A program made the position numbers and the translations under genes. From the NCBI GenBank assembly GCA_030390025.1, contig JASTWF010000034.1:4650001-4714000 (forward strand): 64,000 bases of DNA. Reading direction: 5' to 3'. Origin of the DNA: Squalus acanthias. Taxonomy: Eukaryota. Position 1 is the first letter of the stretch. Each line of letters begins with the position of its first letter. Shown piece by piece: positions 1 through 40,904 of this stretch. The notes below the pieces were generated by a model. It did not search any database and had not been told where the DNA came from. It was given only the letters and a program-made list of their open reading frames with translations.

Positions 1-35
1 GCGGCCAAGCCCCTCCCAATCCCCCTGGGGCAGGT

Positions 36-3000
36 ACATAACGAACATACGAATTAGGAGCAGGAATAGGCCATTCGGACCCTCAAGCCTGTTCCGCCAT
101 TCAATAAGATCATGGCTGATCTGATTACTCCACATTCCCGCCTACCCCCGATAACCTTTCACCCCTTGCTTATCAAGAATCTATCTACGTCCGCCTTAAA
201 ATATTCAAAGACTCTGCTTCCACCGCCCTCTGAGGAAGAGAGTTCCAAAGACTCACGACACTGAGAAAAAACATTCTCCTCATCTCTGTCTAAAATGGGC
301 GCTCCATTATTTTTAAACAGTGACCCCTAGTTCTTGATTCTCCCACAAGAGGAAACATCCTCTCCGCATCCACCCGGTCAAGACCCCTCAGGATCTTATA
401 GGTTTCAATCAAGTCACCTCTTACTCTTCTAAATTCCAGTGGATACAAGCCTAGCCTGTCCAACCGTTCCTCATAAGACAACCCGCCCATTCCAGGTATT
501 AGTCGAGTAAACCTTCTCTGAACGGCTTCCAACGCATTTACATCCTTCCTTAAATAAGGAGACTAATACTGTACTCAGTACTCCAGATGTGGTCTCACCA
601 ATGCCCTCTATAACTGAAGCATAAACTCCCTACTTTTGTATTCAATTCCCCTCGCAATAAATGATAACATTCTATTAGCTTTCCTAATTACTTGCTGTAC
701 ATGCATACTAACCTTTTCCGATTCATGCACTAGCACACCCAGAACCCTCTGCATCTCAAAGCTCTGCAATCTCTCACCATTTAGATAATATGCTTATTTT
801 TTATTTTTCTTGCCAAAATGCACAATTGCACATTTTCACACATTATACTCTATTTGCCAGATCTTTGCCCACTCACTTAACCAATTTAAATACCTTTGTA
901 GACTCCATATGTCCTCTTCACAATTTACTTTCCTACCTATCTTTGTCATCAGCAAATTTAGCAACCATACCTTCGGTCCCTTCATCCAAGGCATTTATAT
1001 AAATTGTAAAAAGTTGAGGCCCCAGCATTATCCCTGTGGCACACTACACGTTACATCTTGCCAACCAGAAAATGACCCATTTATGCCTACACTCTGTTTC
1101 CTGTTAGCTAGCCAATCTTCTATCCATGCCAATATGTTACCCCTACACCATGAGCTTCTATTTTCCGAAATAACCTTTGATGTGGCACCTTATCAAATGC
1201 CTTCTGGAAATCTAAGTACAGTACATCCACCGCTTCCCCTTTATCCACAGCACATGTTACTTCCTCAAAGAACTCCAATAAATTGGTTAAACATGATTTC
1301 CCTTTCACAAAACCATGCTGACTCTGCCTGATTACCTTGAACTTTTACAAGTGCCCTGCTATAACGTCTTTAATAATAGTTTCTAGCATCTTCCCCAAGA
1401 CAGGTGTTAAGGTAACTGGCCTGTAGTTTCCTGCTTTCTGTGTCCCTCTCTTTTTGAATAAAGGAGTTACAATCGCTATTTTCTAATCTAATGGAACCTT
1501 CCCCGAATCTAGGGAATTTTGGAAAATTAAAACCAACGCATCAACTATCTCACTTGCTACTTATTTTAAGACCCTAGGATGAAGTCCATCGGGACCCGGG
1601 GACTTGTCAGCCCGCATCTCCAACAATTTCCTCAGTACTACTTCCCTGGTGATTGTAATTTTCTTGACTTCCTCCCTCCCTTCCATTTCCTGATTTACAG
1701 CTGTTTCTGGGATGTTACTTGTATCCTCTATAGTGAAGACCGATGCAAAATACCTGTTCAATTCAACTCCCATCTCCTTATTTTCCATTAATTCCCCAGA
1801 CTCACTTTTTATAGGACCAACGCTCCCTTTGTGAACTCTTTTCTTTTTAGAATATCTATAGAAACTCTTACTATCTGTTTTTATATTCCTAGCTAGCTTT
1901 CTCTGGTACTCTAATTTTTCTCTCCTTATTAATCTTTTATTAATTCTTTGCTGTTTGTTTATATTCTGTCCAATCTTCTGACCTGCCACCCATCTTTTCA
2001 CAATTATATGCTTTATCTTTAAGTTTGATACTAACTTTATCTTTTTTAGTTAACCACGGATGGTGGGTCCTCCCCTTGGAATTTTTCTTTCTCGTTGGAA
2101 TGGATCTATTCTGTGTATTCTGTAATATCCCATTAAATGTCTGCCACTGCAGCTCTATTGACCTATCGCTTACTCTAGTTTGCCAGTTCACTTTAGCTAG
2201 CTCTGCTATCATGCCCTCATAATTGCCCTTATTCAAGTTAAAAAAACTAGTCTTGGACCAAATCTTCTCTCCCTCAAACTGAATGTAAAATTCAATCATA
2301 TTCTGATCACTGCGACCTAGGGGCACCTTCACTATGTGGTCATTAATTAATCTTATCTTGTTTCACAATACCAGGTCCACTATAGCCTGCGCTCTGGTTG
2401 GCTCCAGAACGTGCTGTTCTAAGAAACTGTCCCAAAAACATTCGATGTACTCCTCATCTAGGCAACCTTTGCCCATCTGATTTGTCCATCTATATGTAGA
2501 TTATAATCCCCCATGATTATTGCCGTACCTTTCTGACAAGCTCCCATTATTTCTTCCTTGATACTCCATCCTAACGTGTGGTTACTGTTAGGTGGCCTGT
2601 ACACCACTTCCACAAGTGACTTCTTGCCTTCATCATTTCTCATCTCTACCCAAACCGCTTCTACATCCTGGTTTCCTGAACTTAAGTCATCCCTCTATTG
2701 CGCTAATACCATTATTAATTTACAGAGCCACCCCTCCACTTTTTCCTAAATATCATGTACCCTTCAATATTCAGGTCCCAATGTTTATCATCCTGCAGCC
2801 ATGTCTCTATAATGGCTATCAGATTGTACTTATTTAATTCTATTTGCGCCATCAGTTCTTCTGTTTTGTTTCGAATGCTTCGTGCATTCAGATACAGAGC
2901 CTTTAGTTTTGTCCTTTTCTTATTTTTGTAACCTTTAGCCTTATCTGTTGATTTACTCTTAGATTTGTACTCTCTATCCCTTCCCGTCACGGTCTGTTTA

Positions 3001-3278
3001 TCATTTCCCATATTAATACCTTTCTCGCTTGTCTTGTTTCTACTCTTTGATTTACCACACCTTCCCAGATTTGATCCCTGGCCCCCAATATTTAGTTGAA
3101 AGCCCTCTCTACCGCCCTAGTTATATGACTCGCCAGAACACTGATCCCAGCACGGTTCAGGTGAAGACCAACCCAACGGTACAGATCCCACTTTCCCCAG
3201 TACTGGTGCTAGTGCCCCAGGAAGCGAAACCAATTTATCCCAGACCAGTCTTTGAGTTACGCATTCATCTCTCTAATT
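36..3278 (-). mobile_element. CR1 LINE, near full-length ORF2 (APE endonuclease + RT), degenerate
   Basis: ORF fragments [84 protein letters not shown]. Short-repeat 3' tail at 36-55. Multiple stops and frameshifts. Confidence 0.95.
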
Positions 3279-3284
3279 TGAAGT

Positions 3285-5515
3285 AACAGGGTAGAGGGAG
3301 CTTTACTCCGTATCTAAACCGTGCAGTATCTGCCCTGGGAGTGTTCGATAGGTCTTTGTAGAGGGAGCTTTACTCTGTATCTAACCCGTGCTGTATCTGC
3401 CCTGGGAGTGTTTGATGGGTATTTGTAGAGGGAGCTTTACTCTGTATCAATCCCTGTGCTGTACCTGCCCTGGGAGTGTTCGATAGGTCTTTGTCAAGGG
3501 AGCTTTACTCTGGACCTAACCCGTGGACTACCTGCCCTGCGAGTATTTAATGCGACAGTGATGAGGGAGCTTTACTCTGTATCCAACCCGGGCTGTACCT
3601 GCCCTGGAAATGTTTGATGTCAGTGTCCAGCAAGCTTTACTCTGTATCTAAACTGTTCTGTGACTGCCCTGGCACTTTTTGATAGGACAGTGTAAAGGGA
3701 GCTTTACTCTGTACCTTACCCATGCACTACTTGCCTTGCGAGTGTTAGATGGGACAGTGTAGAGTGAGCTTTACTCTGCATCTTACCTGTGCTGTAACTG
3801 CCCTGGGAGTGTTTGATGGGACAGTGTAGAGGGAGCTTGACTCTGTAACTAACCCATGCACTAACTGCCCAGCGAGTGTTTGATGGGACAGTGTAGAGGG
3901 TGCTTTATTCTATATCTAACCATTGCAGTACCTGCCCTGGGAGTGTATGATGGGAATCTGTAGAGGGATCTTTACTCTGCATCTGACCTGTGCTGTAACT
4001 GTCCTGGGAGTGTTTGATGGGACAGTGTCAAGGTAGCTTTACTCTTCATCTTACCTGTGCTGTACCTAAACTGGGAGTGTTTGATGGGACAGTGTAGAGG
4101 GAGCTTTACTCTGTAACTAACCCATGCACTAACTGCCCAGCGAGTGTTTGATGCGACAGTGTAGAGGGAGCTTCACTCTGTATCTAACCTGTGCTGTACC
4201 TGCCCTGGGAGTGTTGGATGCAACAGTGCAGAGGGAGCTCTACTCTATATCTAACCATTGTTGTATCTGCACTAGGTGTGTTTGATGGCACAATGTATTG
4301 TGAGCTATACTCGGTATCTAACCCGTGCAGTACCTGGCCTGGGAGAGTTTGTTGGAACAGGATAGAGGGGTCTTTACTCTGTATCTAACCCGTGCTGTAC
4401 CTGCCCTGGGAGTGTTTGATGGGACAGTGTAGAGGCAGCTTTACTCTGCATCTTACCCGTGCAGTGCCAGGCCTGGGAGTGTTTGATGTGATAGTATACA
4501 AGGAGCTTTACTCTGTACCTAACCAATGCACTAACTGCCCTGCGAGTGTTTGATGGGACAGTGCTGTGGGAGCTTTACTCGATATCTAACCCGTGCTGTA
4601 ACTGGCCTGAGAGTGTTTGATGCAACAGTGTAGAGGCAACATTACTCTGTATCTTACCTGTGCTGTACCTGACCTGGGAGTGTTTGAAGGGATAGTATAG
4701 AGGGAGCTTTATTCGGTATCTTACCCTGTGCTGTAGCTGCCCTGGGAGTGTGTGATGGGTCCGTTTAGAATGAGATTTAATCTGCAGCTAAACTGTGATA
4801 TACCTGCCCTGTCAGGTATTGAAACGACAGTGCAGAGGGAGCTTTACTCGGTATCTAAGCCGTGCTGTATCTGCCCTGGGAGTCACTGATGGGACAGTGT
4901 AGAGGGAGCTTTACTCTGTATCTAAACCGTACCTGTTCCTGCCCTGGGAGTGTTTGTTGGGACAGTATAGAGGGAGCTTTACTCTGGATGTAACCCGTGC
5001 TGCACATGACCTGGGATTGTTTGATGTCATAATGTGGAGAGAGCATTACTCAGTATCTAACCCGTACTCAACCTGCCCTGAGAGTGTGTGTTGGGACAGT
5101 GTAGAGGAAGCTTTACTCTGTATCTAAACATTGCTGTACCTGCCCCGGGAGTATGTGTTGGGACAGTGTAGAGGAAGCTTTACTCTGTATCTAAAACTTG
5201 CTGTACCTGCCCTGGGAGTATGTGTTGGGACAGTTTAGAGGAAGCTTTACTCTGTATCTAAACCTTACTGTACCTGCCCTGGGAGTGTTTGATGGGATTG
5301 TGTAGAGGGCTCTTTACTCTGTATCTGAATATTGCTGTACCTGCCCTGGGAGTGCAAAAACGGGCAGTGTATTGTGCGCTTTACTGTATATCTAACCCAT
5401 GCTGCACCTAACCTGCGAGTGTTTGATGGGACAGTGCAGAGGGATCTTTACTAAGTATCTAACAACTGCTATACCTGCACTGGGACTGTTTGATGGGACA
5501 GTGTAGTGGGAGCCT
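3285..5515 (+). repeat. 67-bp tandem minisatellite array (GGGACAGTGTAGAGGGAGCTTTACTCTGTATCTAACCCGTGCTGTACCTGCCCTGGGAGTGTTTGAT), diverged copies
   Basis: Recurring GGGAGCTTTACTCTGTATCTAACC about every 67 bp. Confidence 0.95.
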
Positions 5516-5842
5516 TATAACTCTTTATAACGTTAGAATCCTTAATAATCATTTACAAAAGGTGTATAACGGGTTAATAAGGATTATATTGATTTATAAA
5601 GGGTCATGTCCCTTTATCTTATTTTGCATCACTTTGTACCCCATTCAATACCCTTTATAATACTTTGTCAATCATTATAACACTTTATAAGCCTTTGTCG
5701 ATCATTACAACCCTTTATATTCCTTAACAATTCATCATAACACTTTATATTCTATTATCAACCTTTATATATCAATATGATACTTTATATTCATTTATAA
5801 TAATTTATAATCCAGCATAATCCTTTATAACCCTTTATAAAG
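5515..5842. repeat. AT-rich degenerate repeat (CTTTATA/TTATAA-rich); mirrored at ~34515-34840
   Basis: Repeated CTTTATA motifs with loose ~32-bp spacing. Confidence 0.6.
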
Positions 5843-6906
5843 CGTCAGGATACAGCGTAGGGATAATGGGTAGGTACTCAAATTGGCAGGATGTGACTCC
5901 TGGTGTCCGGCAGGGCTGTGTATTGGGGCCTAAGCTATTCACAATATTTATTAATGACTTAGGTGATGTCATAGAAAGTCATATACCCAAATGTGCCGAT
6001 GACACAAAGATAGGCAGCATTGAAGGCAGTGTAGATGAAACCATAAAATTACAAAGGGATATTGACAGATTAAGGGAATGGGCAAAACTATGGCAAATGG
6101 ATTTCAATGTAAGCAAATGTGAGGTCAATCACTTTGGACCCGAAAAGGATAGAACAGGTTACTTTCTAAATGGTGAAAAGCTAAAAAGAGTGGATGTCCA
6201 AAGAGACTTGGGGGGTCCAGGTACATAGATCATTAAAATGTCATGGACAGGTACAGAAAATAATCAAAAAGGCTCATGGAAAGCTGCTCTTTATATCTAA
6301 AGGACTAGATTACAAGAGGTAGAAGTTATTTTGCAGCTATACAAAACCCTGGTTAGACCACACCTGGAGTACTGTGAGCAGTTCTGGGCCCCACACCTTA
6401 GGAAGGATATATTGGCCTTGGAGGGAGTGCAGCGCAGGTTTACCAGAATGATACCCAGACTTCAAGGGTTAAGTTACGAGGAGAGATTACACAAATTAGG
6501 GTTCTATTCCCTAGAATTTAGAAGGTTAAGGGGTGATCTGAGCTAAGTTTTCAGGATATTAAGGGGAACAAATAGAGTAGATAGTGAGAAACTATTTCCA
6601 TTGGTGGGGTTACTAGGACTGGAGGCACAGTCTAAGAATTAGAGGCAGTCCTTTCAGGAGTGAAATTAGGAAACACTTCGACACACAAAGTGGTAGAAAT
6701 TTGGAACTCTCTTCCACAAACGGAAGTGGATGCGAGATAAATTGTTAATTTTAAATCGGAGATGTATTGCTTTTTGTTAACCAAAGGTATGAAGGGATAT
6801 GGGCCAAAGGTGGGTTTATGGAGTTAGATCGCAGATCAGTCAATGATCGCATTGAATGGGGCAACAGGCTCGAGGGGCTGAATGGCCGACTCCTCTTCCT
6901 ATGTCC
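5843..6906 (+). mobile_element. CR1 LINE 3' fragment (RT C-terminal part and 3' UTR)
   Basis: [47 protein letters not shown]; typical CR1 3' terminus. Confidence 0.93.
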
Positions 6907-7009
6907 TCAGTGTAGGATCCGTTGACTTGTTAGCCCTCCCCAAATGCATTACCTCACACTTCTCCGGATTGAATTCCATTTGTCACAATCTTCCTGCATG
7001 TAGCATGAG

Positions 7010-7350
7010 TTATACACAGAGTAAAGCTCCCTTTACACTGCCCAATCAAACAGTCCAAGGGCAGGTATAGCACGGGTTAGATAGAGATACAGACTAAACC
7101 TTCCTCTGCACTGTCCACTCAAACACTCGCAGAGCAGGTACAGCGCGGGTGACATGCAAAGCTCCCTCTAATACAGCATGTGCAGCGTACAGCTCCCTTG
7201 ACACGACCCAATGAAGCACAACCAGCTCGGGTACAGCATGGGATGAATACAGAATAAAGATCTCACTACATGTAAGTGTCAAACACTCCCGGGTGAGGTA
7301 CGGGCAAGGTTTATCTCCGAGTTAAGCTCCGCTCAACTTGCCACATCAAA
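7010..7350 (-). repeat. Short degenerate block of the 67-bp minisatellite
   Basis: AGAGTAAAGCTCCC and GGGCAGGTATAGCACGGGTTAGATA motifs. Confidence 0.75.
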
Positions 7351-7405
7351 GGCCGAGCCTGATGGCAGATGTTAACCAGCTCCCAGTATTTGGTTAGACT
7401 CTTAC

Positions 7406-7900
7406 CTCAGCAATATCCTGGACTGATGTGATTCTCAGTAAAGTTCCTCACCTTTCCAATCATTGTTGAAGCTTCTCGTTTTATCCCGTCTCCGACACTG
7501 GAGGTCTCGATCCCACCATATCTGCTCTGTGAACCCAGCCACATTTCTCCAGTCCCAGTCAGTGAGGCGATGATTCGACTTCTCTCTCTCCACCTTCCTG
7601 AGATATTGCTCACTCCCAGAGACTGTCAATAGAAAAATGATTCATATTAATCCCAGAATACAGGGGGAGCATTTTTCTGACCATAATTATATTCAATTTG
7701 ATTATTTTTGCAATTAATCAGTGTGTTTGAATTACTTACTTTAATATTGAATAGTTCTTTTCTGTCCATTGCCCTGTTTATTGGGACTAAACTCACCCCC
7801 AGTGTCAGCTGTCACTCCAGCTCCTCCCACACCGACATCGCACTGATGGGCCGTAGCCAGGGGCGGGGCCCTGTCTCCAGGTGACATCACACAGCAGCTA
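7406..7900 (-). pseudogene. 5' cassette of unidentified gene, copy 1: promoter-like region, exon 1 ending 7797, intron, exon 2 7622-7406 with ATG 7544 and in-frame TGA just before the donor
   Basis: GGG|GTGAGT donor, AT-rich intron, TTGACAG acceptor, GAG|GTAAGA donor, GC box GGGCGGGG at ~7861. Splice signals are conserved in three copies. The product is not recognised. Confidence 0.5.
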
Positions 7901-8269
7901 GGAATGATGTCACAAAGCGGCCGGAGCCCCTCCCACTCGAGGTGTCACAGGGTCACATTGACCAGGCTCTGCTCCTGGTGTCCAGTCTCACTGGGCATGA
8001 ACACAAGGTGTACAATCAGCCACATCTCCGGGAATGAACCGGGATCCTGCCCTACATCTCTCCCGAGTTTTATTTCCATCGGTGTAAAATGGGTGGCTGA
8101 TTCACAATTACCCAGTTTGTACTATAGCACCTACTAATCGTCAAACTCTACCCCAGTATTTCTTTCCTTCTCTACGTATCTGCTCCCTCACTGCCTCTCT
8201 CTCTCTCTCTCTCCACAGTGAGGGATACGTCTGGGGCTGGGATCATACTGTGCGGAAAGGATCAGAATA

Positions 8270-9350
8270 TCAGTCAGCCTCTCTTCCTGCTCCCGCATCG
8301 TTACCTCTGGTGTCCCCCAAGGATCTGTCCTTGGCCCCCTCCTATTTCTCATCTACATGTTGCCACTTGCTGACATCATCCAGAAACACAGTCAGTTTCC
8401 ACATGTACGCTGACGACACCCAGCTCTACCTCACTCCCTCTTCTCTCGACCCCTCCACGGTGTCTAAATTGTCAGACTGCTTGACCGACATGAGCAAAAG
8501 TTTCTCCAAGTAAATATTGGGAAGACCGAAGCCGTTGTTTTCGGTCCCTGCCACCAACACCGTTCCCTCGCCACAGACACAATCCCTCTACCTAACATCT
8601 GTCTGCGGCTGAACCACACTGTTCACAACATTGGTGTCATATTTGACCCTGAAGTGAGCCTCCGACCACATATCCGCAGCATAACAAAGGCCGCCTACTT
8701 CCACCTCCGTAACATCGCCCGTAACCACCCTTGCCTCATCTCATCCGCTGCTGAAACCCTCATCCATGCCTTTGTTACTTCTAGACTTGACTATTCCAAC
8801 GCACTCCTGGCTGGCCTCCCACATTCCACCCAACGTAAACTTGAGGTCATCCAAAACTCGGTTGCCCATGTCCCAACTCGCACCAAGTCCCGTTCACCCA
8901 TCTCCCGTGCTCGCTGACCTACACTGGCTCCCGGTTAAGCAGCACCTCGATTTCAAAATTCTCATCCTTCTTTTCAAATCCTGCCACGGCCTCACCCCTT
9001 CCTATCTCTAATCTCCTTCAGCCCCACAACCCCCCAAGATATCTGCGCGCCTCTAATTCTGCCCTCTTGAGCATCCCTGATTATAATCGCTCAACCATGT
9101 AGGCCGTGCCTTCTGTTGCCTCGGCACTAAGCTCCGCAATTCACTGCCGAAACATCTCCGCCTCGCTACCTCTCTTTCCTCCTTGAAGACGCTCATTAAA
9201 ACCTTCCACTTTGACCAAGCTTTTAGTCACCTGTCCGATTTATCCTGATGTGGCTCAATGTCAAAATTGTTTGTCTTAAAATACTCCTATGAAGCGCCTT
9301 AGGACGTTTTACTACGTTAAAGGCGCTATTTAAACACAAGTTGTTTTTGT
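8270..9350 (+). mobile_element. L2 LINE 3' fragment
   Basis: [49 protein letters not shown]2-type 3' end with GTT tail. Confidence 0.93.
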
Positions 9351-9473
9351 ACACCTCTGGCTCTATAGAATCATAGAATGGATACAGCACAGAAGGAGGC
9401 CTTACGGCCCATCGAGCCCGTGCCGGCTCTCTGCAAGAGCACTTCAGCCAGTCCCACTTATCCAATCCCCTTT

Positions 9474-10325
9474 TGATATACTCCACACCCCTCACTGTAA
9501 CACTGATATACCCCACACCCCTCACTGTAACACTGATATACCCCACACCCCTCACTGCAACACTGATATACCCTGCACCCCTCACTGTAACACTGATATA
9601 CTCCACACCCCTCACTGTAACACTGATATACCCCTCACTGTAACACTGATATGCTCCACACCCCTCACTAACACTGATATACCCCTCACTGTAACACTGA
9701 TATACCCCACACCCCTCACTGCAACACTGATATACCCCACACCCCTCACTGTAACACTGATATACCCCACACCCCTCACTGTAACACTGATATACCCCAC
9801 ACCCCTCACTGTAACACTGATATACCCCGCACCCCTCACTGTAACACTGATATACCCCGCACCCCTCACTGTAACACTGATATACCCCGCACCCCTCACT
9901 GTAACACTGATATACCCCGCACCCCTCACTGTAACACTGATATACCCCGCACCCCTCACTGTAACACTGATATACCCCACACCCCTCACTGTAACACTGA
10001 TATACCCCACACCCCTCACTGTAACACACTGATATATCCCACACCCCTCACTGTATTACTGATATACCCCACACCCCTCACTATAACACAGCAGTACCCC
10101 ACACCCCTCACTGTAACACTGATATACCCCACACCTCTCACTGTAACACTGATATACCCCACACCTCTCACTGTAACACTGATATACCCCGCACCCCTCA
10201 CTGTAACACTGATATACCCCGCACCCCTCACTGTAACACAGATATACCTTATACCCCTCAATTTAACACTGTGATATACCTCACTATAACACACGGAAAT
10301 ACCCCACAGGCCTCACAGTAACACT
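9474..10325 (+). repeat. 30-bp minisatellite (CTCACTGTAACACTGATATACCCCACACCC)
   Basis: Directly visible tandem units; gives the YSEGCGVYQC repeat ORF. Confidence 0.97.
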
Positions 10326-10332
10326 ATGCTTC

Positions 10333-10805
10333 AGTGGGGAGGTGAGCTGCTGGTTTAGTGGGGAGGTGAGCTGCTGGTTTAGTGGGGAGGTGAGCTGCTG
10401 GTTTAGTGGGGAGGTGAGCTGCTGGTTTAGTGGGGAGGTGAGCTGCTGGTTTAGTGGGGAGGTGAGCTGCTGGTTTAGTGGGGAGGTGAGCTGCTGGTTT
10501 AGTGGGGAGGTGAGCTGCTGGTTTAGTGGGGAGGTGAGCTGCTGGTTTAGTGGGGAGGTGAGCTGCTGGTTTAGTGGGGAGGTGAGCTGCTGGTTTAGTG
10601 GGGAGGTGAGCTGCTGGTTTAGTGGGGAGGTGAGCTGCTGGTTTAGTGGGGAGGTGAGCTGCTGGTTTAGTGGGGAGGTGAGCTGCTGGTTTAGTGGGGA
10701 GGTGAGCTGCTGGTTTAGTGGGGAGGTGAGCTGCTGGTTTAGTGGGGAGGTGAGCTGCTGGTTTAGTGGGGAGGTGAGCTGCTGGTTTAGTGGGGAGGTG
10801 AGCTG
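10333..10805 (+). repeat. 24-bp perfect minisatellite (AGTGGGGAGGTGAGCTGCTGGTTT) x ~19.7
   Basis: Identical tandem units from 10333 at 24-bp period. Confidence 0.99.
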
Positions 10806-11163
10806 TTATCATTCGTTGTTCTTGCCCATTGATCTCTATCAGTTTGTTCTTTACTCTCCCACACAGGAGTGTTAATTACCTGCTTCTGTAACCTTCAAAC
10901 CCTCACAGCTTCCAATTTCCTTTACAAAAGGGACTGATTCTCTGCCCACACAGCCCAGCAGTCCTCCAGACACCCTGCTGGCATTAAATTCAATCTTCAC
11001 ACTCACCTATGCTCGGCAGCAGATGTGCATCTTTCTGGAGTGTATTCTAACCTAACTTAATCCCTGGTTATTCTAGCTTAATATTGATATAATTCCATAT
11101 TTCAACCAGTGTATTATATTTAATAATCTATACATACCAATACTTACAAGAACTTTTAAAAGG

Positions 11164-11697: not shown

Positions 11698-11913
11698 CTG
11701 AAAAAGGAGATTACAAAAGTCATCACTAAGTGCAGGACATAAATTCAGAACAGACAATTCTACTTTCTATGGAACAATCTTTCCTCTCTTGTTTCCCCCA
11801 AAAGCTGTAAATTCCTGTCCCACACACTCTCCCTCTCCCTGTGCTGAAATCCCTACCCATTGCACCATATTTTTGCCCCAACCCACTCTCTCCCTCCCTC
11901 TGCTCTCCAGCCC

Positions 11914-18141: not shown

Positions 18142-18149
18142 TTTTTTTT

Positions 18150-29615: not shown

Positions 29616-29972
29616 CTTTTAAAAGTTCTTGTAAGTATTGGTATGTATAGATTATTAAATATAATACACTGGTTGACATATGGAATTATATCAATATTAA
29701 GCTAGAATAACCAGGGATTAAGTTAGGTTAGAATACAGTCCAGAAAGACGCACATCTGCTGCCGAGCATGGGTAAGTGTGAAGATTGAATTTAATGCCAG
29801 CAGGGTGTCTGGAGGACTGCTGGGGAGTGTGGGCAGTGAATCAGTCCCTTTTGTAAAGGACATTGGAAGCTGTGAGAGTTTGAAGGTTACAGAAGCAGGT
29901 AATTAACACTCCTGTGTGGGAGAGTAAAGAACAAACTGATAGAGATCAATGGGCAAGCACAACGAATGATAA

Positions 29973-30229
29973 CAGCTCACCTCCCCACTAAACCAGCAGC
30001 TCACCTCCCCACTAAACCAGCAGCTCACCTCCCCACTAAACCAGCAGCTCACCTCCCCACTAAACCAGCAGCTCACCTCCCCACTAAACCAGCAGCTCAC
30101 CTCCCCACTAAACCAGCAGCTCACCTCCCCACTAAACCAGCAGCTCACCTCCCCACTAAACCAGCAGCTCACCTCCCCACTAAACCAGCAGCTCACCTCC
30201 CCACTAAACCAGCAGCTCACCTCCCCACT
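29973..30229 (-). repeat. 24-bp perfect minisatellite x ~10.7 (mirror copy)
   Basis: CAGCTCACCTCCCCACTAAACCAG units. Confidence 0.99.
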
Positions 30230-30236
30230 GAATCAT

Positions 30237-30447
30237 AGTGTTACTGTGAGGCCTGTGGGGTATATACCTTACAGTGAGGGGTGTGGGGTATATCAGTATT
30301 ACAGTGAGGGGTGTGGGGTATATCAGTGTTACAGTGAGGGGTGTGGGGTATATCAGTGTGTTACAATGAGGGGTGTGGGATATATCAGTGTTACAATGAG
30401 GGGTGTGGGGTATATCAGAGTTACAGTGAGGGGTGTGGAGTATATCA
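30237..30447 (-). repeat. 30-bp minisatellite (short mirror copy)
   Basis: TACAGTGAGGGGTGTGGGGTATATCAGTGT units. Confidence 0.95.
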
Positions 30448-30617
30448 AAAGGGAATTGTATAAGTGCCCGAAGGAAAGCAATTGCAGGGCTCTGGGGAAA
30501 GGGCGGGGGAGTGGGACTTGCTGAAGTGCTCTTGCAGAGAGCCGGCACGGGTTCGACGGGCCGTAAGGCCTCCTTCTGTGCTGTAACCATTCTATGATTC
30601 TATAGAGCCAGAGATGT

Positions 30618-31700
30618 ACAACAACAATAACTTGTATTTAAATAGAGCCTTTAACGTAGTAAAACGTCCCAAGGCGCTTCACAGGAGTATTTTCAGACAA
30701 ACAATTTTGACATTGAGCCACATCAGGATAAATTCGGACAGGTGACTAAAAGCTTGGTCAAAGTGGAAGGTTTTAATGAGCGTCTTCAAGGAGGAAAGAG
30801 AGGGGGCGAGGCGGAGAGGTTTAGGCTAGGAATTCCAGAACTTAGGGCCCAGGCAACAGAAGGCACGGCCACCAAATGTTGAGTGATTATAATCAGGGAA
30901 GCTCAAGAGGGCAGAATTAGAGGAGCGCAGATATCTCGGGGGTGTTGTGGGGCTGAAGGAGATTCGAGATAGGAAGGGGCGAGGCCATGGAGGGATTTGA
31001 AAACAAGGATGAGAATTTTGAAATCGAGGTGCTGCTTAACCGGGAGCCAGTGTAGGTCAGCAAGCACAGGGGAGATGGGTGAACGGGACTTGGTACGAGT
31101 TAGGACATGGGCAGCCGAGTTTTGGATGGCCTCAAGATTACATAGGGTGGAATGTGGGAGGCCAGCCAGGAGTGCGTTGGAATAGTCAAGTCTAGAAGTA
31201 ACAAAGGCATGGATGAGGGTTTCAGCAGCGGATGAGAGGAGGCAAGGGCGGAGACGGGCGATGTTACGGAGGTGGAAGTAGGCGGTCTTTGTTATGCTGC
31301 GGATATGTGGTCGGAGGCTCATTTCAGGGTCAAATATGACACCAATGTTGCGAACAGTGTGGTTCAGCCTCAGACAGATGTTAGGGAGAGGGATTGAGTC
31401 TGTGGCTCGGGAACGGTGTTTGTGGCAGGGTCGAAAACAGTGGCTTCGGTCTTCCCAATATTTATTTGGAGAAACTTTTGCTCATGTCCGTCAAGCAGTC
31501 TGACAATTTAGACACCGTGGAGGGGTCAAGAGAAGAGGTAGTGAGGGAGAGCTTGGTGTCGTCAGCGTACAGATGGAAACTGACTGTGTTTCTGGATGCT
31601 GTCACCAAGGGGCAACATGTAGATGAGAAATAGGAGGGGGGCAAGGAGAGATCCTTGGGGGACACCAGAAGTAACGATGCAGGAGCAGGAAGAGAGGCTA
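30618..31700 (-). mobile_element. L2 LINE 3' fragment (mirror copy)
   Basis: AETLIHAFVTSRLDYSNALL, HLYADDT. Confidence 0.93.
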
Positions 31701-32084
31701 ACTGATATTCTGATCCTTTCCGCACAGTATGATCCCAGCCCCAGACGCTTCCCTCTCTGTGGGGAGAGAGAGAGAGAGGCAGAGACAGTGAGGGAGCAGA
31801 TACGTAGAGAAGGAAAGAAATACTGGGGTGGTGTTTGACGTTTAGTAGGTGCTATAGTACAAACTGGGTAATTGTGAAACAGCCACCCATTTTACACCGA
31901 TGGAAATAAAACTCGGGAGAGATGTAGGGCAGGATCCCGGTTCATTCCCGGAGACGGGGCTGATTGTACACCCTGTGTTCATGCCCAGTGAGACTGCACA
32001 CCAGGAGCAGAGCCTGGTCAATGTGACCCTGTGACACCTCGAGTGGGAGGGGCTCCGGCCGCTTTGTGACATCGTTTCTGGCTG

Positions 32085-32571
32085 CTGTGTGATGTCACCT
32101 GGAGACAGGGCCCTGCCCCTGGTTACGGCCCATCAGTGGGATGTCAGTGTGGGAGGAGCTGGAGTGACAGCTGACACTGGGGGTGAGTTTAGTCCCAATA
32201 AACAGGGCAAAGGGCTGAAAGGAACAATTTAATATTAAAGTAAGTAATTTAAACACACTGATTAATTGCAAAAATAATGAAATTGAATATAATTATGGTC
32301 ACAAAAATGCTCCCCCTGTATTCTGGGATTAATATGAATCATTTTTCTATTGACAGTCTCTGGGAGTGAGCAATATCTCAGGAAGGTGGAGAGAGAAGTC
32401 GAATCATCGCCTCACTGACTGGGACTGGAGAAATGTCGCTGTGTTCACAGAGCAGATCTGGTGGGATCGAGACCCCCAGTGTCGGAGACGGGATAAAACG
32501 GGAAGCTTCAACAATGATTGGAAAGGTGAGGAACTTTACTGAGAATCCCATCAGTCCAGGATATTGCTGAG
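32085..32571 (+). pseudogene. 5' cassette of unidentified gene, copy 2 (exon 1 ends 32182; exon 2 32357-32571; ATG 32433; in-frame TGA 32568-32570)
   Basis: GGG|GTGAGT, TTGACAG|, GAG|GTGAGA; mirror of 7406-7900. Confidence 0.5.
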
Positions 32572-32624
32572 GTGAGAGTCTAACCAGATACTGGGAGCTG
32601 TTCAACATCTTCCATCAGGCTCGG

Positions 32625-33345
32625 CCTTTGATGAGGCAAGTTGAGCGGAGCTTAACTCGGAGATAAACCTTGCCTGTACCTCACCCGGCAGTGTTTGACA
32701 CTTGCATGTAGTGAGATCTTTATTCTGTATTCATCCCATGCTGTACCCGAGCTGGTTGTGCTTCATTGGGTAGTGTCAAGGGAGCTGCACGCTACACATC
32801 CTGCATTAGAGGGAGCTTTGCATGTCACCCGCGCTGTACCTGCTCAGCGAGTGTTTGAGTGGGCAGTGCAGAGGAAGGTTTAGTCTGTATCTCTCTATCT
32901 AACCCGTGCTGTTCGTGCCATTGGACTGTTTTGATTGGACATTGTAAACGGAGCTTTATTCTATGTATCTCTATCTAACCCGTGCTGTACCTGCCCTTGG
33001 ACTGTTTGATTGGGCAGTGTAAAGGGAGCTTTACTCTGTATGTCTCTATCTCCCCCGTGCTATACCTGCCCTTGGATTATTTGATTGTGCAGTGTAAAGG
33101 GAGCTTTGCTCTGTATCTCTCTATCTAACCGGTGCTATACCTGCCCTTGGACTATTTGATTGGACAGTGTAAATGGAGCTTTACTCTGTATCTCTCGATC
33201 TAACCGGTGCTATACCTGCCCTTGGACTGTTTGATTGGACAGTGTAAAGGGAGCATTACTCTGTATCTCTCTATCTCACCCGTGCTATACCTGCCCTTGG
33301 ACTGTTTGATTGGGCAGTGTAAAGGGAGCTTTACTCTGTGTATAA
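32625..33345 (+). repeat. 67-bp minisatellite block with locally expanded ~71-bp variant
   Basis: Repeated CTGTATCTCTCTATCTAACC...CCTGCCCTTGGACTGTTTGATTGG units. Confidence 0.85.
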
Positions 33346-33449
33346 CTTATGCTACATGCAGGGAGATTGTAGCAAATGGAATTCAATCCGGAGAAGTGTG
33401 AGGTGATGCATTTGGGGAGGGCTAACATGTCAACGGATCCTACACTGAG

Positions 33450-34515
33450 GAACATAGGAAGAGGAGTCGGCCATTCAGCCCCTCGAGCCTGTTGACCCAT
33501 TCAATGCGATCATTGACTGATCTGCTATCTAACTCCATAAACCCACCTTTGGCCCATATCCCTTCATACCTTTGGTTAACAAAAAGCAACAAATCTCCGA
33601 TTTAAAATTAACAAATTATCAAGCATCCACTTCCGTTTGTGGAAGAGAGTTCCAAATTTCTACCACTTTGTGTGTCGAAGTGTTTCCTAATTTCACTCCT
33701 GAAAGGACTGCCTCTAATTCTTAGACTGTGCCTCCAGTCCTAGTATCCCCACCAATGGAAATAGTTTCTCGCTATCTGCTCTATCTGTTCCCCTTAATAT
33801 CCTGAAAACTTCGCTCAGATCACCCCTTAACCTTCTAAATTCTAGGGAATAGAACCCTAATTTGTGTAATCTCTCCTCGTAACTTAACCCTTGAAGTCCG
33901 GGTATCATTCTGGTAAACCTGCGCTGCACTCCCTCCAAGGCCAATATATCCTTCCGAAGGTGTGGTGCCCAGAACTGCTCACAGTGCTCCAGGTGTGGTC
34001 TAACCAGGGTTTTGTATAGCTGCAGAATAAATTCTACCCTCTTGTAATCTAGTCCTTTAGATATAAAGACCAGCTTTCCATTAGCCTTTTTGATTATTTT
34101 CTGCACCTGTCCATGACATTTTAATGATCTATGTACCTGGACCCCCCAAGTCTCTTTGGACATCCACTCGTTTTAGCTTTTCACCATTTTAGAAAGTAAC
34201 CGGTTCTATCCTTTTAGGGTCCAAAGTGAATGACCTCACATTTGCTTACATTGAAATCCATTTGCCATAGTTTTGCCCATTCCCTTACTCTGTCAATATC
34301 CCTTTGTAATGTTATGGTTTCACCTGCACTGCCTACAATGCTGCCTATCTTTGTGTCATCGGCACATTTGGGTATATGACTTTCTATGACATCACCTAAG
34401 TCATTAATAAATATTGTGAATAGCTGAGGCCCCAAAACACAGCCCTGCTGGACACCACGAGTCACATCCTGCCAATTTGAGTACCTACCCATTATCCCTA
34501 CGCTGTATCCTGACG
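33450..34515 (-). mobile_element. CR1 LINE 3' fragment (mirror copy)
   Basis: [40 protein letters not shown]. Confidence 0.93.
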
Positions 34516-34842
34516 CTTTATAAAGGGTTATAAAGGATTATGCTGGGTTATAAATTATTATAAATGAATAAAAAGTATTATGGTATATAAAGTTTGATAA
34601 TAGAAGATAAAGTGTTATGATGAATTGTTAAGGAATATAAAGGGTGGTAATGATCGACAAAGGCTTATAAATTGTTATAATGATTGACAAAGGATTATAA
34701 AGGGATTTGAATGGGGTACAAAGTGATGCAAAATATGATAAAGGGACATGACCCTTTATAAATCATTATAATCATTAATAACCCGTTATACACCTTTTGT
34801 AAATGATTATTAATGATTCTAACGTTATAAAGAGTTATGAGG

Positions 34843-37600
34843 CTCCCACTACACTGTCCCATCAAACAGTCCCAGTGAAGGTACAGCATTTGTTAGATAC
34901 TTAGTAAAGATCCCTCTGCACTGTCCCATCAAATACTCGCAGGTTAGGTACAGCATGGGTTAGATATAGAGTAAAGTGCAAATACACTGCCCGTTTCAGC
35001 ACTCCCAGGGCAGGTACAGCAAGGTTTAGATACAGAGTAAAGCTCCCTCTACACAATCCCATCAAACACTCCCAGGGCAGGTACAGCAAGGTTTAGATAC
35101 AGAGTAAAGCTTCCTCTGCACTGTCCAAACACACTCCCAGGGCAGGTTGAGTACGGGTTAGATACAGAGTAATGCTCCCTCCACATTATGCCATCAAACC
35201 ATTCCAGGTCATGTACAGCACGGTTTACATACAGAGTAAAGCTCTCTCTACACTGTCCCAACAAGCATTCCCAGGCAGCTGCAGCACGAGTTAGATGCAG
35301 AGTAGAGCTCCCTCTACACTGTCCCATCAAACACTGAGAGGTCGCACAACACCAGGTTATAGTCCAACAGTTTTATTTTAAATCACAAGCTTTCGGAGTT
35401 ACAACTCCTTCGTCCGAAAGCTTGTGATTTAAAATAAAACTGTTGGACTATAACCTGGTGTTGTGCGACCTCTCAATTTTGTCCACCCCAGTCCAACACC
35501 GGCATCTTCGCATCATGACCATCAAACACTCCCAGGGCAGGAACAGTACGGTTCAGATACAGATTAAAGATCCCTCTACAGTGTCCCATCAAACATTTCC
35601 AGGGCAGGTACAGCACGGGTTAGATACAAAGTAAAGCTCTCGCTACACTGTCCCATCAAACACTCACATGTCAGGTACAGTACAAGTAAGATACAGAGTA
35701 AATCTGCCTCTACACTTTCCCATCAATGACTCCCAGGGCAGATACAGCACGGTTTAGATACCGAGTAAAGCTCCCTCTACACTGTCGTTTCAATACCTTC
35801 CAGGGCAGGTATATCACAGTTTAGCTGCAGAGTAAATCTCATTCTAAACGGACCCATCACACACTCCCAGGGCAGCTACAGGACAGGGGAAGATACAGAG
35901 TAAAGCTTTCTCTACTCTGTCCCATCTAACTGTCCCAGGCAAGTACAGCCCGGGTTAAATACCGAATAAAGCTCCCTCTAAACTATCCCTTCAAACACTC
36001 CCAGGTCAGGTACAGCACAGGTAAGATACAGAGTAAGGTTGCCTCTACACTGTTGCATCAAACACTCTCAGGCCAGTTACAGCACGGGTTGATGCAGAGT
36101 AAAGATCCCTCTACAGAATCCCATCAAACACGCCCAGGGCAGGTACAGCAATGGTTAGATATAGAGTAAAGCTCCCAATGCACTGTCCCATCAAACACTC
36201 GCAGGGCAGTTAGTGCATGGGTTAGTTACTGAGTAAAGCTCCCTGTATACTATCACATCAAACATTCCCACGTCTGGAACAGCACAGGTTAGATACAGCA
36301 TAAAGACACCTCCATCCTGTTCCAACAAACACTCCCAGGCCAGGTACTGCACGGGTTAGATACAGAGTATAGCTCACTATACATTGTGCCATCAAACACA
36401 CCAAGGGCAGATACAACAATGGTTAGATATAGAGTAGAGCTCCCTCTACACTGTCCCATCAAACCCTCCCAGTTTAGGTACAGCATGGATTAGATATGGA
36501 ATGAAGCTCCCTCTACACTGTTGCATCAAACACTCCCAGGGCAGGTACAGCACAAGTTAGTTACAGAGTAAAGTTCCCTCTACACTGTCACATCAAACAC
36601 TCCCAGTTTAGGTACAGCACAGGTAAGATCCAGAGTAAAGCTCTCTCTACACTGCCCCATCAAACACTCGCAGGGCAGGTAGTTCACGGGGTTAGATACA
36701 GAGTAAAGCTCCCTCTACACTGTCCCATCAAACACTCGCAGGGCAGGTAGTGCACGGGTTATCTAAAGAATAAAGCTCCCTCTACACTGTCCCATCAAAC
36801 ACTCGCAGGGCAGGTAGTGCACGGGGTTAGATACAGAGTAAAGCTCCCTCCACACTGCCCCATCAAACACTCGCAGGGCAGGTAGTGCACGGGGTTAGAT
36901 ACAGAGTAAAGCTCCGTCTACACTGTCCCATCAAACTTTCTCAGGCAGCTACAGCCCGCGTTAGATACCGAATAAAGCTCCCTTTACACTGTCCTATCAA
37001 AAACTGCTAGGGCAGGTACAGCAAGGGTTGGATACAGAGTAAAGCTTCCTATACACTGTCCCATCAAACAGCCCCATGGCAGGTACAGCACGGGTTAGAT
37101 ATAGAGTAAAGCTCCCACTACACTGTCCCTTCAAACACTCCAAGGGCAGGTACAGCACAGGTTGGATACAGAGTAAAGCTCCCTCTACACCGTCCCATCA
37201 AACACTTCCAGGGCAGGTACAGCACTGCTTTGAAAGAGGAAAGCTCCCTCATCACTGTCGCATTAAATCCTCGCAGGGCAGGTAGTGCACGTGTTAGGTA
37301 CAGAGTAAAGCTCCCTCTATAAAGACCTATCGAACGCTCGCAGGGCAGGTACAGCACAGGGATTGATGCAATGTAAAGCTTCCTCTACACTGTCCCTTCA
37401 AATATTCCCAGGAAGATACAGCACGGGTTAGATACAGCCAAAGCTCCCTCTACAAAGACCCTTCAAATATTCCCAGGGCAGGTACAGCACGGGTTAGATA
37501 CAGAGTAAAGCTCCCTCTACAAAGACCCATCAAACACTCCCAGGGCAGATACAGCACGGTTTAGATACAGAGTAAAGCTCCCTCTACCCTGTTCCATCAA
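34843..37600 (-). repeat. 67-bp minisatellite array (mirror copy, longer)
   Basis: AGAGTAAAGCTCCCTCTACACTGTCCCATCAAACACTCCCAGGGCAGGTACAGCAC units. Confidence 0.95.
35336..35518 (+). mobile_element. 183-bp fold-back miniature Penelope-type insertion with 12-bp target-site duplication
   Basis: Perfect 62-bp inverted repeat (35336-35397 / 35413-35474), 15-nt loop, 44-nt 3' tail. CCATCAAACACT at 35324-35335 and 35519-35530. Partial hammerhead GACGAAGGAG..CTCCGAAA on the minus strand. Confidence 0.85.
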
Positions 37601-40600
37601 ATTAGAGAGATGAATGCTTAGCTCAAAGACTGGTATGGGAGAAATTGGTTTCGCTTCCTGGGGCACTAGCGCCAGTACTGGGGAAAGTGGGATCTGTACC
37701 GTTGGGTTGGTCTTCACCTGAACCGTGCTGGGACCAGTGTTCTGGCGAGTCATATAACTCGGACGGTAGAGAGGGCTTTAAACTAAATATTGGGGGCCAG
37801 GGATCACATCTGGGAAGGTGTGGTAAATCAAAGAGTAGAAACAAGACAAGAGAGAAAGGTATTACTATGGGAAATGATAAACAGACTGTGACGGGAAGGG
37901 ATAGAGAGTACAAATCTAAGAGTAAATCAACAGATAAGGCTAAATGGTACAAAAATAATAAAAGGACAAAACTAAAGGCTCTGTATCTGAATGCACGTAG
38001 CATTCGAAACAAAACAGATGAACTGATGGCGCAAATAGAATTAAATAAGTACAATCTGATAGCCATTACAGAGACATGGCTGCAGGATGACAAACATTGG
38101 GACCTGAATATTGAAGGGTACATGATATTTAGGAAAAAGTGGAGGGGTGGCTCTGTAAATTAATAATGGTATTAGCGCAATAGAGGGATGACTTAAGTTC
38201 AGGAAACCAGGATGCAGAAGCGGTTTGGGAAGAGATGAGAAATGATGAAGGCAAGAAGTCACTTGTGGAAGTGGTGTACAGGCCCCCTAACAGTAACCAC
38301 ACGTTAGGATGGAGTATCAAGGAAGAAATAATGAGAGCTTGTCAGAAAGGTACGGCAATAATCATGGGGGATTTTAATCTACATATAGATGGAAAAATCA
38401 GATGGGCAAAGGTAGCCTAGATGAGGAGTTCATAGAATGTTTTTGGGACAGTTTCTTAGAACAGCACGTTCTTGAGCCAACCAGAGAGCAGGCTATAGTA
38501 GACCTGGTATTGTGAAACAAGATAAGATTAATTAATGACCACATAGTGAAGGTGCCCCTAGGTCGCAGCGATCAGAATATGATTGAATTTTACATTCAGT
38601 TTGAGGGAGAGAAGATTTGGTCCAAGACTAGTTTTTTTTAACGTAAATAAGTGCAATTATGAGGGCATGATAGCAGAGCTAGCTAAAGTGAACTGGCAAA
38701 CTAGAGTAAGCGATAGGTCAATAGAGCTGCAGTGGCAGACATTTAATGGGATATTTCAGAATACACAGAATAGATCCATTCCAACGAGAAAGAAAAATTC
38801 CAAGGGGAGGACCCACCATCCGTGGTTAACTAAAAAAGTTAAAGATAGTATCAAACTTAAAGAAAAAGCATATAATGGTGAAAGATGGGTGGCAGGTCAG
38901 AAGTTTGGACAGAATATAAACAAACAGCAAAGAATTACTAAAAGATTAATAAGGAGAGAAAAATGAGAGTACGAGAGAAATCGAGCTAGAAATATAAAAA
39001 CAGATAGTAAGAGTTTCTATAGATATTCAAGAAAGAAGATTTAACAAAGGGGTCGTTGGTCCTATAAAAAGTGAGTCTGGGGAATTAATAATGGAAAATA
39101 AGGAGATTACAGTTGAATTGTACAGGTATTTTGCATCGGTCTTCACAAAAGAGGATACAATTAACATCCCAGAAACAGCTGTAAATCAGGAAATGGAAGG
39201 GAGGGAGGAAGTCAGGAAAATTACAATCACCAGGGAAGTAGTACTGAGGAAATTGTTGGAGCTGCGGGCTGACAAGTCCCCGGGTCCTGATGGACTTCAT
39301 CCTAGGGTCTTAAAAGAAGTAGCTAGTGAGATAGTTGATGCGTTGGTTTTAATTTTCCAAAATTCCCTAGATTCGGGGAAGGTTCCATTAGATTAGAAAA
39401 TAGCGATTGTAACTCCTTTATTCAAAGAGGGAGGGAGACAGAAAGCAGGAAACTACAGGCCAGTTAGCTTAACACCTGTCTTAGGGAAGATGCTAGAAAC
39501 TATTATTAAAGACGTTATAGCAGGGCACGTGTAAAAGTTCAAGGTAATCAGGCAGAGTCAGCATGGTGGTGTGAAAGGGAAATCATGTTTAACCAATTTA
39601 TTGGAGTTCTTTGAGGGAGTAACATGTGCTGTGGATAAAGGGGAACCGGTGGATGTACTGTACTTAGATTTCCAGAAGGCATTTGATAAGGTGCCACATC
39701 AAAGGTTATTTCGGAAAATAAAAGCTCATGGTGTAGGGGGTAACATATTGGCATGGATAGAAGATTGGCTAGCTAACCGGAAACAGAGTGTAAGCATAAA
39801 TGGGTCATTTTCTGGTTAGCAAATGTAATGTGTAGTGTGCCACAGGGATAATGCTGGGGCCTCAACTTTTTACAATTTATATAAATGACTTGGATGAAGG
39901 GACCGAAGGTATGGTTGCTAAATTTGCTGATGACAAAAAGATAGGTAGGAAAGTAAATTGTGAAGAGGACATATGGAGGCTACAAAGGTATATAAATAGG
40001 TTAAGTGAGTGGGCAAAGATCTGGCAAATAGAGTATAATGTGTGCAAATGTGCAATTGTGCATTTTGGCAGGAACAATAAAAAATAAGCATATTCTCTAA
40101 ATGGTGAGAGATTGCAGAGCTTTGAGATGCAGAGGGTTCTGGGTGTCCAAGTGCATGAATCGCAAAAGGTTACTATGCAGGTACAGCAAGTAATTAGGAC
40201 AGCTAATAGAATGTTAACGTTTATTGCGAGGGGAATTGAATACAAAAGTTGGGAGTTTATGCTTCAGTTATAGAGGGCATTGGTGAGAACACATCTGGAG
40301 TACTGAGTACAGTATTAGTCTCCTTATTTAAGGAAGGATGTAAATGCGTTGGAAGCAGTTCAGAGAAGGTTTACTAGACTAATACCTGGAATGGGCGGGT
40401 TGTCTTATGAGGAAAGGTTGGGCAGGCTAGGCTTGTATCCACTGGAGTTTAGATGAGTAAGAGGTGACTTGATTGAAACCTATAAGATCCTGAGGGGTCT
40501 TGACAGAGTGGATGCGGAGAGGATGTTTCCTCTTGTGAGAGAATCTAGAACTAGGGGTCACTGTTTAAAAATAATGGAGCGCCCATTTTAGACAGAGATG

Positions 40601-40852
40601 AGGAGAATTTTTTTTCTCTCAGAGGGTCGTGAGTCTTTGGAAGTCTCTTCCTCAGAGGGCGGTAAAAGCAGAGTCTTTGAATATTTTTAAGGCGGACGTA
40701 GATAGATTCTTGATAAGCAAGGGGGTGAAAGGTTATCGGGGGTTGGACGGGAATGTGGAGTAATCAGATCAGCCATGATCTTATTGAATGGCGGAACAGG
40801 CTTGAGGGGCCGAATGGCCGACTCCTGCTCCTAATCCGTATGTTCGTTATGT
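37601..40852 (+). mobile_element. CR1 LINE near full-length ORF2, degenerate (mirror copy)
   Basis: LKALYLNARSIRNK, AITETWL, KSCLTNLLEFF, KFADD. Confidence 0.95.
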
Positions 40853-40904
40853 ACCTGCCCCGGGGGGATTGGGAGGGGCTTGGCCGCTTTAACCTTTTTC
40901 CTGG

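Follow-up and report, generated by a model that had tools for sequence, protein, structure and literature searches.

An old palindromic segmental duplication among the repeat-rich amplicons of the Squalus acanthias genome

Results and Discussion

A window of 64,000 nucleotides from the shark Squalus acanthias (assembly GCA_030390025.1, contig JASTWF010000034.1; G000:C2671:4650001-4714000 in our numbering) contains a large palindrome, i.e., two arms in inverted orientation around a spacer. The structure is of an ordinary kind: a segment was duplicated in inverted orientation long ago, within an amplicon field rich in repeats. We consider it fairly probable that this duplication arose once by a fold-back-type break in a transposable element (TE), was amplified to at least 16 places, and has been drifting uncorrected. 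A previous examination of the letters alone (the sequence-only reading) had treated it as a single giant structure and implied kinship with the sex-chromosome palindromes maintained by gene conversion. Neither part was borne out: the palindrome belongs to a family of which 19 copies were sampled, its arms are not each other’s closest relatives (approximately unbiased (AU) test, p = 0.0003), and no intact gene was found in it by Pfam searches of long open reading frames (ORFs), translation and receptor analysis.

The window lies on a 6.12-Mb scaffold (C2671) of a 3.71-Gb assembly in 3,882 contigs. Flanks of 100 kb were added on each side, giving 264 kb for analysis in total; window positions that are negative or exceed 64000 refer to these flanks. 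Each genome search scored 40 candidates, and the copy numbers and contig restrictions reported below are therefore sample-based lower bounds.

The inverted arms

A repeat search returned 89 inverted pairs in the window, far beyond chance, the longest being 2,021 nt at 97% identity. Self-BLAST resolved a collinear inverted chain with bit scores up to 10,346 (Table 1), and with the upstream DNA included its first block starts at -685, with its partner at 41574. The two inverted arms of at least 18 kb around a ~4.5-kb spacer that the sequence-only reading had described were confirmed by the repeat search, self-BLAST and MAFFT alike. The arms are designated B (left) and A (right).

Global arm-versus-arm alignment with MAFFT (18,484 bp against 18,772 bp) contained 982 mismatches in 17,648 aligned pairs, or 5.56%, in agreement with the earlier estimate of about 5% substitutions. 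The mismatches comprise 427 transitions and 555 transversions, with 162 in CpG context. Identity per kb is 93–97.7% outside satellites, and 1-kb bins of the alignment displayed neither an identity gradient toward the centre nor a converted island. The arms differ by 61 indels, 13 of which are 30 bp or longer; all 13 fall within tandem arrays or the zinc-finger array.

The centre and its junctions

The symmetry of the arms ends within a TE, here called T, for which 24 dispersed copies at 86–92% identity were found. In each of the six dispersed copies compared (on C10, C20, C14, C25, C3 and C4), the equivalent of 17118-18142 is followed directly by the reverse complement of 22701-21402. In the left arm the match to T ends at 18142 in all six comparisons, and on the right T is unbroken from the arm into the spacer. 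Because T is cut at 18142 and whole on the right, the symmetry ends inside the TE and leaves one novel junction, 18142/18143. This junction was found at four of the 19 loci sampled (the window and 18 others fetched), namely the window, C2671 at ~2.02 Mb, C625 at ~77 kb and C3707 at ~1.03 Mb. The other three are 93–95% identical to the window and contiguous across the junction, and the four differ by 5–7% from one another.

All of the remaining 15 loci join 16669 directly to 21051, some with an extra insertion of ~308 bp at 16343. The segment absent from them, 4.38 kb in length, takes in 2.9 kb of spacer as well as the innermost 1.47 kb of the left arm. Since the lost piece of arm is homologous to the inner segment of the A arm, the simplest explanation is one 4.38-kb deletion from a window-type form. 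At the three other loci of window type, the B inner segments are 92.7–93.9% identical to the left inner segment of the window, against 88.9–93.4% for most A inner segments, and this slightly closer kinship with B, as judged from sequence identity, would fit a single deletion.

Three other descriptions of the centre were rejected. An arm/spacer boundary at 17798 and 22803 reflects a ~140-bp deletion, the true edge lying at 18142 and ~22630; the segment 21051-22802 is a dispersed TE and not a family-specific centre; and a supposed third centre type, the ‘16343-type’, is the 16669/21051 junction plus the ~308-bp insertion. Within the spacer, 18237-20673 holds reverse-transcriptase fragments and has an inverted copy at 44950-47387 (87.8% identity), and for the intervals 20000-21500 and 21400-22800 dozens of copies are scattered over the large contigs. 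A piece of ~307 bp in the long interspersed nuclear element (LINE) of the spacer (20674-20980) is missing at C625 (~77 kb) and in most of the dispersed copies of the same LINE, is present at C2671 at ~2.03 Mb, and is probably a nested short insertion.

An amplified family in one set of contigs

With arm segment 12600-15600 as query, all 40 scored places matched: the query itself, its own right arm (96%) and 38 other places at 89–98% identity, four of them at 98%. Queries 5600-8600 and 57440-60040, the latter from the outer segment, gave the same multi-copy picture. The matched places, 40 scored per query, were confined to C2671 and small contigs of 74 kb to 1.4 Mb, and the sampled palindrome loci sit on the 6.1-Mb scaffold plus nine small contigs, several of which hold an inverted pair of their own. 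The amplicon contigs include C643, C283, C1934, C625, C3707, C3259, C3469, C40 and C2672. The large contigs C3, C4, C10, C14, C20 and C25 (48–209 Mb) had no scored matches to arm DNA; the true TEs inside the region, unlike arm DNA, do match them.

All 18 other loci are laid out alike: the B arm is followed by a centre derived from TEs and then by the A arm, which has an inner segment of 1.1 kb. At four of the 18 the B arm was not found in the fetched DNA, to ~10 kb past the centre. Across the 19 loci a 2.9-kb centre segment has a median pairwise identity of 95.7% (range 93.9–99.9%), and only 4 of 171 pairs are at least 99% alike, which implies at least 16 distinct lineages. An outer marker was located 25–42 kb from the centre, in the expected orientation, on C283, C84, C3259 (twice) and C3707, so that the amplified unit extends for at least ~40 kb per side. 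The five centres found on C2671 in this sample all have the same orientation. With several copies of over 10 kb that are more than 90% identical and have internal junctions in common, the palindrome falls among segmental-duplication amplicons.

Two loci on C2672, at ~142.7 kb (-) and 412.8 kb (+), each with a centre and an A arm, are 99.86% identical, inverted and 270 kb apart; they may form a palindrome that is both far larger and much younger, or else have been duplicated in assembly.

With at least 16 distinct copies on 10 contigs, irregular spacing on C2671 and Harbinger-type transposase remnants in both outer arms, the palindromic unit could be conceived as a very large self-inserting transposon, or as a passenger of one. 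Such a giant mobile element is highly improbable, considering that neither ends of the unit nor terminal repeats or target-site duplications were established and that the coding remnants seen are ordinary decayed LINEs and a broken DDE_Tnp_4. Its copies are also confined to one contig set, unlike the genome-wide true TEs inside them, and the distance from centre to outer marker varies from 25 to 42 kb.

Phylogeny of the arms

A maximum-likelihood tree was built from 28 arm segments (13000-16300 and equivalents; 16 A and 12 B; 3,297 columns). In none of the 12 two-armed loci are the arms of a locus sisters. Instead, the arms group by side: the A/B label needs 2 changes on the tree versus a shuffled mean of 9.4, and none of 500 shuffles was as low. 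Forcing the window arms to be sisters made the tree 113 log-likelihood units worse (p-AU 0.0003; the AU test was chosen after the tree had been seen, on the question posed by the finding itself). Each window arm is 97–98% identical to arms at other loci versus 96% to its own partner, and the two are likely drifting apart without arm-to-arm correction. The star-like backbone, together with a divergence between copies about equal to that between arms, indicates that amplification closely followed the inverted duplication. Partners are discordant in part: C643, C2671_2.31M and C3707c have nearly identical B arms but A arms in three clades. We read this as later exchange between copies, the alternative being assembly switching between near-identical copies.

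These results bear directly on a sex-chromosome-type palindrome, in which gene conversion would keep the arms alike and the structure would be preserved for selected, e.g., gonad-expressed, genes. According to Jackson et al. (2021, Genome Res, PMC8327919), primate X and Y palindromes have arms of 8–140 kb, whose divergence gene conversion continues to hold below 0.2% on average; the selected genes in these arms are often expressed in the testis, and the typical instability of the X palindromes is deletion of the spacer and inner arm. Compared with that description, the shark arms are similar in size and enclose a kb-scale spacer, the centre is likewise unstable through deletion, and the scaffold is hard to assemble, as sex-linked amplicons often are. 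On the same comparison, the shark arms are 5.6% diverged, are not sisters, each being nearer to arms elsewhere, and contain only dead or truncated genes; the mirrored receptor sequences of the outer arms have a dN/dS of 2.16, and neither a gradient nor a converted island of identity marks correction. The shark palindrome lacks the arm identity (above ~99%), the sister arms and the selected genes of a conversion-maintained sex-chromosome palindrome, and it is extremely unlikely to be one.

Proposed origin

One new joint and a kb-scale spacer continuous with the original side lead us to infer an origin by fold-back or template switching. The original DNA would be the right (A) side, running from the arm through the whole of T into the spacer without a break. 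After a break at the present 18143, the end would have folded back, or the replication fork switched template, and the A side would have been copied outward from ~22630, producing the B arm and the single new joint 18142/18143. The palindrome would then have been duplicated within a larger unit (at least ~40 kb per side) in a field of GPR139-like receptor genes and gene fragments. In one lineage the 4.38-kb deletion would have taken out part of the spacer together with the inner B arm, and this form may have become the commonest; later exchanges between copies would have produced mosaic arms. The cargo of the window copy would be non-functional, and the structure, lacking any role, would have come about as a side effect of amplification.

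Several observations weigh against this proposal. Junction microhomology, a hallmark of fold-back, is unreadable after ~5–8% divergence of the inner arms. The backbone of the tree is star-like, the A and B arms are not separated into two clean clades, and the C283 A arm is placed among the B arms (85/100); formation once, followed by amplification, consequently rests mainly on the common junctions. The B arm of the window clusters with B arms of deletion type; on this grouping, the centre of the window could be ancestral only if arms were exchanged later. The GPR139-like receptor frames in the outer arms are open (309 and 338 codons), with a splice-acceptor-like motif before one of the bodies, and there may be an upstream exon and a live receptor gene. 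Assembly error in a very repetitive scaffold is likewise conceivable, the contigs from public sequencing runs that cover 12001-20850 (X1, X3, X15, X17; likeness 98) being 56–185 bp long; none of these 56–185-bp contigs bridges a junction with 31 letters on both sides in that interval. The public runs include two samples of the same organism. Runs X15 and X17 have low depth in bins 12591-13180, too weak a signal to bear on presence in other species.

As an assembly artefact, the palindrome would be the product of paralogous copies or haplotypes joined head to head, or of a chimeric fold-back read. The region is among the most repetitive of the assembly, many copies lie on small unplaced contigs, and some segments are 99.8% alike between loci when their neighbours are not, which could reflect switching between copies. 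We nevertheless regard an artefact as very unlikely. Fold-back chimeras give near-identical, spacerless arms, in contrast to the 5.6% divergence and 4.5-kb spacer observed here; the junction 18142/18143 was assembled at four loci that differ by 5–7% and the derived joint at 15 more; and the 264 kb of window and flanks contain no N gaps. The view of the sequence-only reading that the structure is real and old, and not a read fold-back artefact, stands on the same divergence and the same repeated junctions. Both junction forms recur at many diverged loci, and the design is therefore real in the genome; this recurrence alone does not prove the window instance.

Comparison with known systems

A close mechanistic parallel to the proposed fold-back origin is provided by human fold-back inverted duplications. 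According to Hermetz et al. (2014, PLoS Genet, PMC3907307), their spacers measure 766–70,466 bp (median 3,428 bp), each has a single new junction while the original sequence runs on unbroken at the other edge of the spacer, and interspersed repeats sometimes lie at the spacer edge. The shark palindrome resembles these cases in its inverted copies, its ~4.5-kb spacer, which is within their range, and its single novel junction. It differs in that the shark event is old and fixed in the germline, whereas theirs are de novo rearrangements in patients; in addition, the shark palindrome is not visibly tied to a terminal deletion, its junction microhomology cannot be read, and its product was later amplified to at least 16 distinct copies.

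The shark structure can also be set beside amplicon fields at the level of the family.

Amplicon fields of segmental duplications can surround large tandem gene families. Like them, the shark family comprises many copies of more than 10 kb at 93–98% identity, in both orientations and in one genomic compartment, with gene fragments mixed with TEs and satellites and a mosaic structure produced by exchange between copies. Unlike them, its repeated unit is a palindrome with an exact junction and two datable forms of the centre (4 ancestral, 15 deleted). The family therefore provides a non-mammalian counter-example, in which a long palindrome persisted and was copied many times without homogenisation of its arms, yet shows instability by centre deletion like that of the primate X. 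The single junction inside a TE and the two nested centre forms are discrete markers for ordering the amplification events. The family also links hard-to-assemble scaffolds to the very large GPR139-like family of sharks, which bears on the expansion of that family and on whether the amplicon scaffolds are sex-linked or heterochromatic. Within the library searched, no publication was found on palindromes or on amplification of GPR139-like receptors in sharks; papers on GPR139 and sharks did not, as judged by title or abstract, concern this family.

Outer extension of the mirror symmetry

The sequence-only reading had noted that the left arm reaches the window edge and had left the true size open; in the upstream DNA the arm continues. 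A further 16 collinear anti-diagonal blocks pair -50330..-4576 with 83840..41773 at 84–95% identity (~19 kb aligned), and sparser inverted matches reach -75 kb and +114 kb. The mirror structure spans at least 134 kb (-50330 to +83840), and the 41 kb originally reported is its best-preserved core.

Just outside the left arm lies a LINE of 3.7 kb (-4410..-688) without a partner at the right mirror position. Its frames (-4494..-979) encode an esterase-type (GDSL/OSK) ORF1, an endonuclease and a reverse transcriptase, all large and open, and a 96.5% copy is found ~130 kb away at 127404-131136; this LINE was probably still active once the duplication had occurred.

A second set of inverted matches is centred near +117 kb and includes 79525-81448 with 155505-153585 (94.7%) and 88633-92168 with 145148-141600 (87.5%). 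The region looks like a chain of more than one inverted duplication. Large tandem arrays flank the palindrome at -96256..-75033 (~21 kb, ~24-bp register), 63576-69151 (5.6 kb, ~31-bp register) and 72637-77394 (4.8 kb, ~54-bp register), their registers being judged from BLAST offsets only.

Coding remnants and GPR139-like receptors

A Pfam search of 34 long ORFs of the window left 28 without a match, five matching RVT_1 (three of them below the Pfam cut-off) and one matching the Spt5 C-terminal domain (CTD). The last falls in the 30/24-bp tandem arrays and was taken as a repeat artefact. Apart from this spurious match, the only Pfam matches among the 34 window and 76 flank ORFs are TE domains (RVT_1, endonuclease, GDSL/OSK-type esterase and DDE_Tnp_4) and two 7tm_1 frames.

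The 7tm_1 frames form a mirrored pair in the outer arms (Table 1) and belong to a shark family annotated as ‘probable G-protein coupled receptor 139’, which numbers 2,646 public proteins at E <= 0.001; the best 120 of the 2,646 are all from sharks, at 56–83% identity, in confirmation of a genome of shark type. The open frames cover 309 and 338 codons and match the whole conserved body at 71–79% identity. Both bodies are without a start codon and contain only half of the first transmembrane segment (TM1). N-terminal fragments of the same type (57–58% identity, tblastn with P0006) are found 23–30 kb nearer the centre than the bodies in both arms; their overlap with the bodies, of at least 9 residues, means that they cannot simply be a first exon. 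Between the mirrored bodies, 5.7 synonymous versus 38.3 nonsynonymous differences were counted (dN/dS 2.16), which shows no purifying selection. Beside the bodies, mirrored remnants of Harbinger/PIF-type transposases lie at -43924..-43406 (+) and 77752..78243 (-), with DDE_Tnp_4 matches at E = 9e-17 and 1e-25.

The receptors raise a functional alternative, namely that the unit was amplified under selection for working GPR139-like genes, with the palindrome doubling their dose. Consistent with it are the openness of both bodies over the whole conserved region, the great size of the family in sharks and the splice-acceptor-like motif, a polypyrimidine-CAG, before one body. A functional receptor amplicon is nonetheless distinctly unlikely: start codon and complete TM1 are missing, the N-terminal fragments lie far off and overlap the bodies, nonsynonymous differences prevail, and the receptor pieces are located in the degraded outer arms, outside the reported 41 kb.

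Three start-less, otherwise open receptor bodies, the third in inverted orientation, alternate in the order -, +, - with spacings of 127 kb and 73 kb, and this alternation hints at successive inverted duplications. Alternating in this way at -46.6, +80.9 and +154.1 kb, the copies are no more than suggestive of a breakage-fusion-bridge history. It is conceivable, if rather unlikely, that the palindromic amplicon served as the duplication engine of the giant shark GPR139-like family through fold-back or breakage-fusion-bridge-type cycles. If so, one compartment would have been built as a multi-megabase field of alternately oriented units, and the 19 copies in two centre forms would be a fossil record of the growth of the receptor repertoire to thousands.

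Satellites, zinc-finger exon and repeats of the core arms

In every case where a satellite array was called in both arms, its copy number differs. The difference in satellite length that the sequence-only reading had pointed out is thereby corroborated for the 67-, 30- and 24-bp units. A 75-bp array (6.8 copies) was called in the right arm only, where the alignment shows 378 bp extra.

Each core arm also contains a C2H2 zinc-finger pseudo-exon, with a zf-C2H2 match at 29274-29582 (Pfam, E = 5e-13). In the right copy the fingers are split over two reading frames with stops, and the stops and the frameshift are common to both arms, indicating that the exon was dead before the inverted duplication. 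The single indel previously noticed in this exon was recovered in the arm alignment, where the right arm is longer by 164 bp, equivalent to about two fingers.

Table 1. Coordinates of the inverted blocks, arms, centre, repeats and coding remnants (window numbering)
Feature	Position	Strand	Remarks
Inverted block	1-5354 with 40887-35527		self-BLAST
Inverted block	5018-7150 with 35333-33203		self-BLAST
Inverted block	7012-9669 with 32968-30273		self-BLAST
Inverted block	10549-11262 with 30229-29516		self-BLAST
Inverted block	11192-17798 with 29422-22803		self-BLAST
Left (B) arm, well-preserved part	1..18142 in window; begins -685		collinear inverted match to 22630-41574
Right (A) arm, well-preserved part	22630..41574		inner boundary approximate, mapped from dispersed TE copies
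Spacer	18143..22629 (right edge approximate)		~4.5 kb, all TE-derived; no inverted partner inside the palindrome
Truncated TE T, inner end of left arm	17118..18142	+	six of six dispersed copies
Whole TE T across spacer/right-arm boundary	21402..23486	-	~140-bp deletion at 22803
4.38-kb segment lost at 15 of 19 loci	16670..21050		common junction 16669/21051
67-bp satellite, left arm	3286..5517		33.3 copies
67-bp satellite, right arm	34842..37601		41.4 copies
30-bp and 24-bp arrays, left arm	9474..10805		27.4 and 19.7 copies
24-bp and 30-bp arrays, right arm	29973..30447		10.7 and 7.0 copies; shorter than left
C2H2 zinc-finger pseudo-exon, left arm	11000..11450 (approximate)	-	motif scan, three-frame translation
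C2H2 zinc-finger pseudo-exon, right arm	29100..29700 (approximate)	+	Pfam zf-C2H2
Outer right arm, degraded mirror continuation	41575..64000		runs to at least +83840
47-bp satellite, outer right arm	42742..44537		38.3 copies; mirror array about -11574..-7337
GPR139-like N-terminal fragment (aa 1-72), outer right arm	57472..57687	+	mirror copy -16679..-16464
Receptor body, outer left arm	-47092..-46166	-	7tm_1, GPR139-like
Receptor body, outer right arm	80336..81349	+	7tm_1, GPR139-like
Third receptor body, inverted	153687-154583	-	

An element of ~730 bp occurs at 7181-7902, 32081-32793 and 40927-41658, and additionally at -685..~40. Each arm thus carries two direct copies, ~8.85 kb apart and 89–92% identical, which bracket the 67-bp satellite. 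This pair of direct repeats may be similar in kind to long terminal repeats (LTRs), in which case a single old LTR element may make up the outer third of each core arm.

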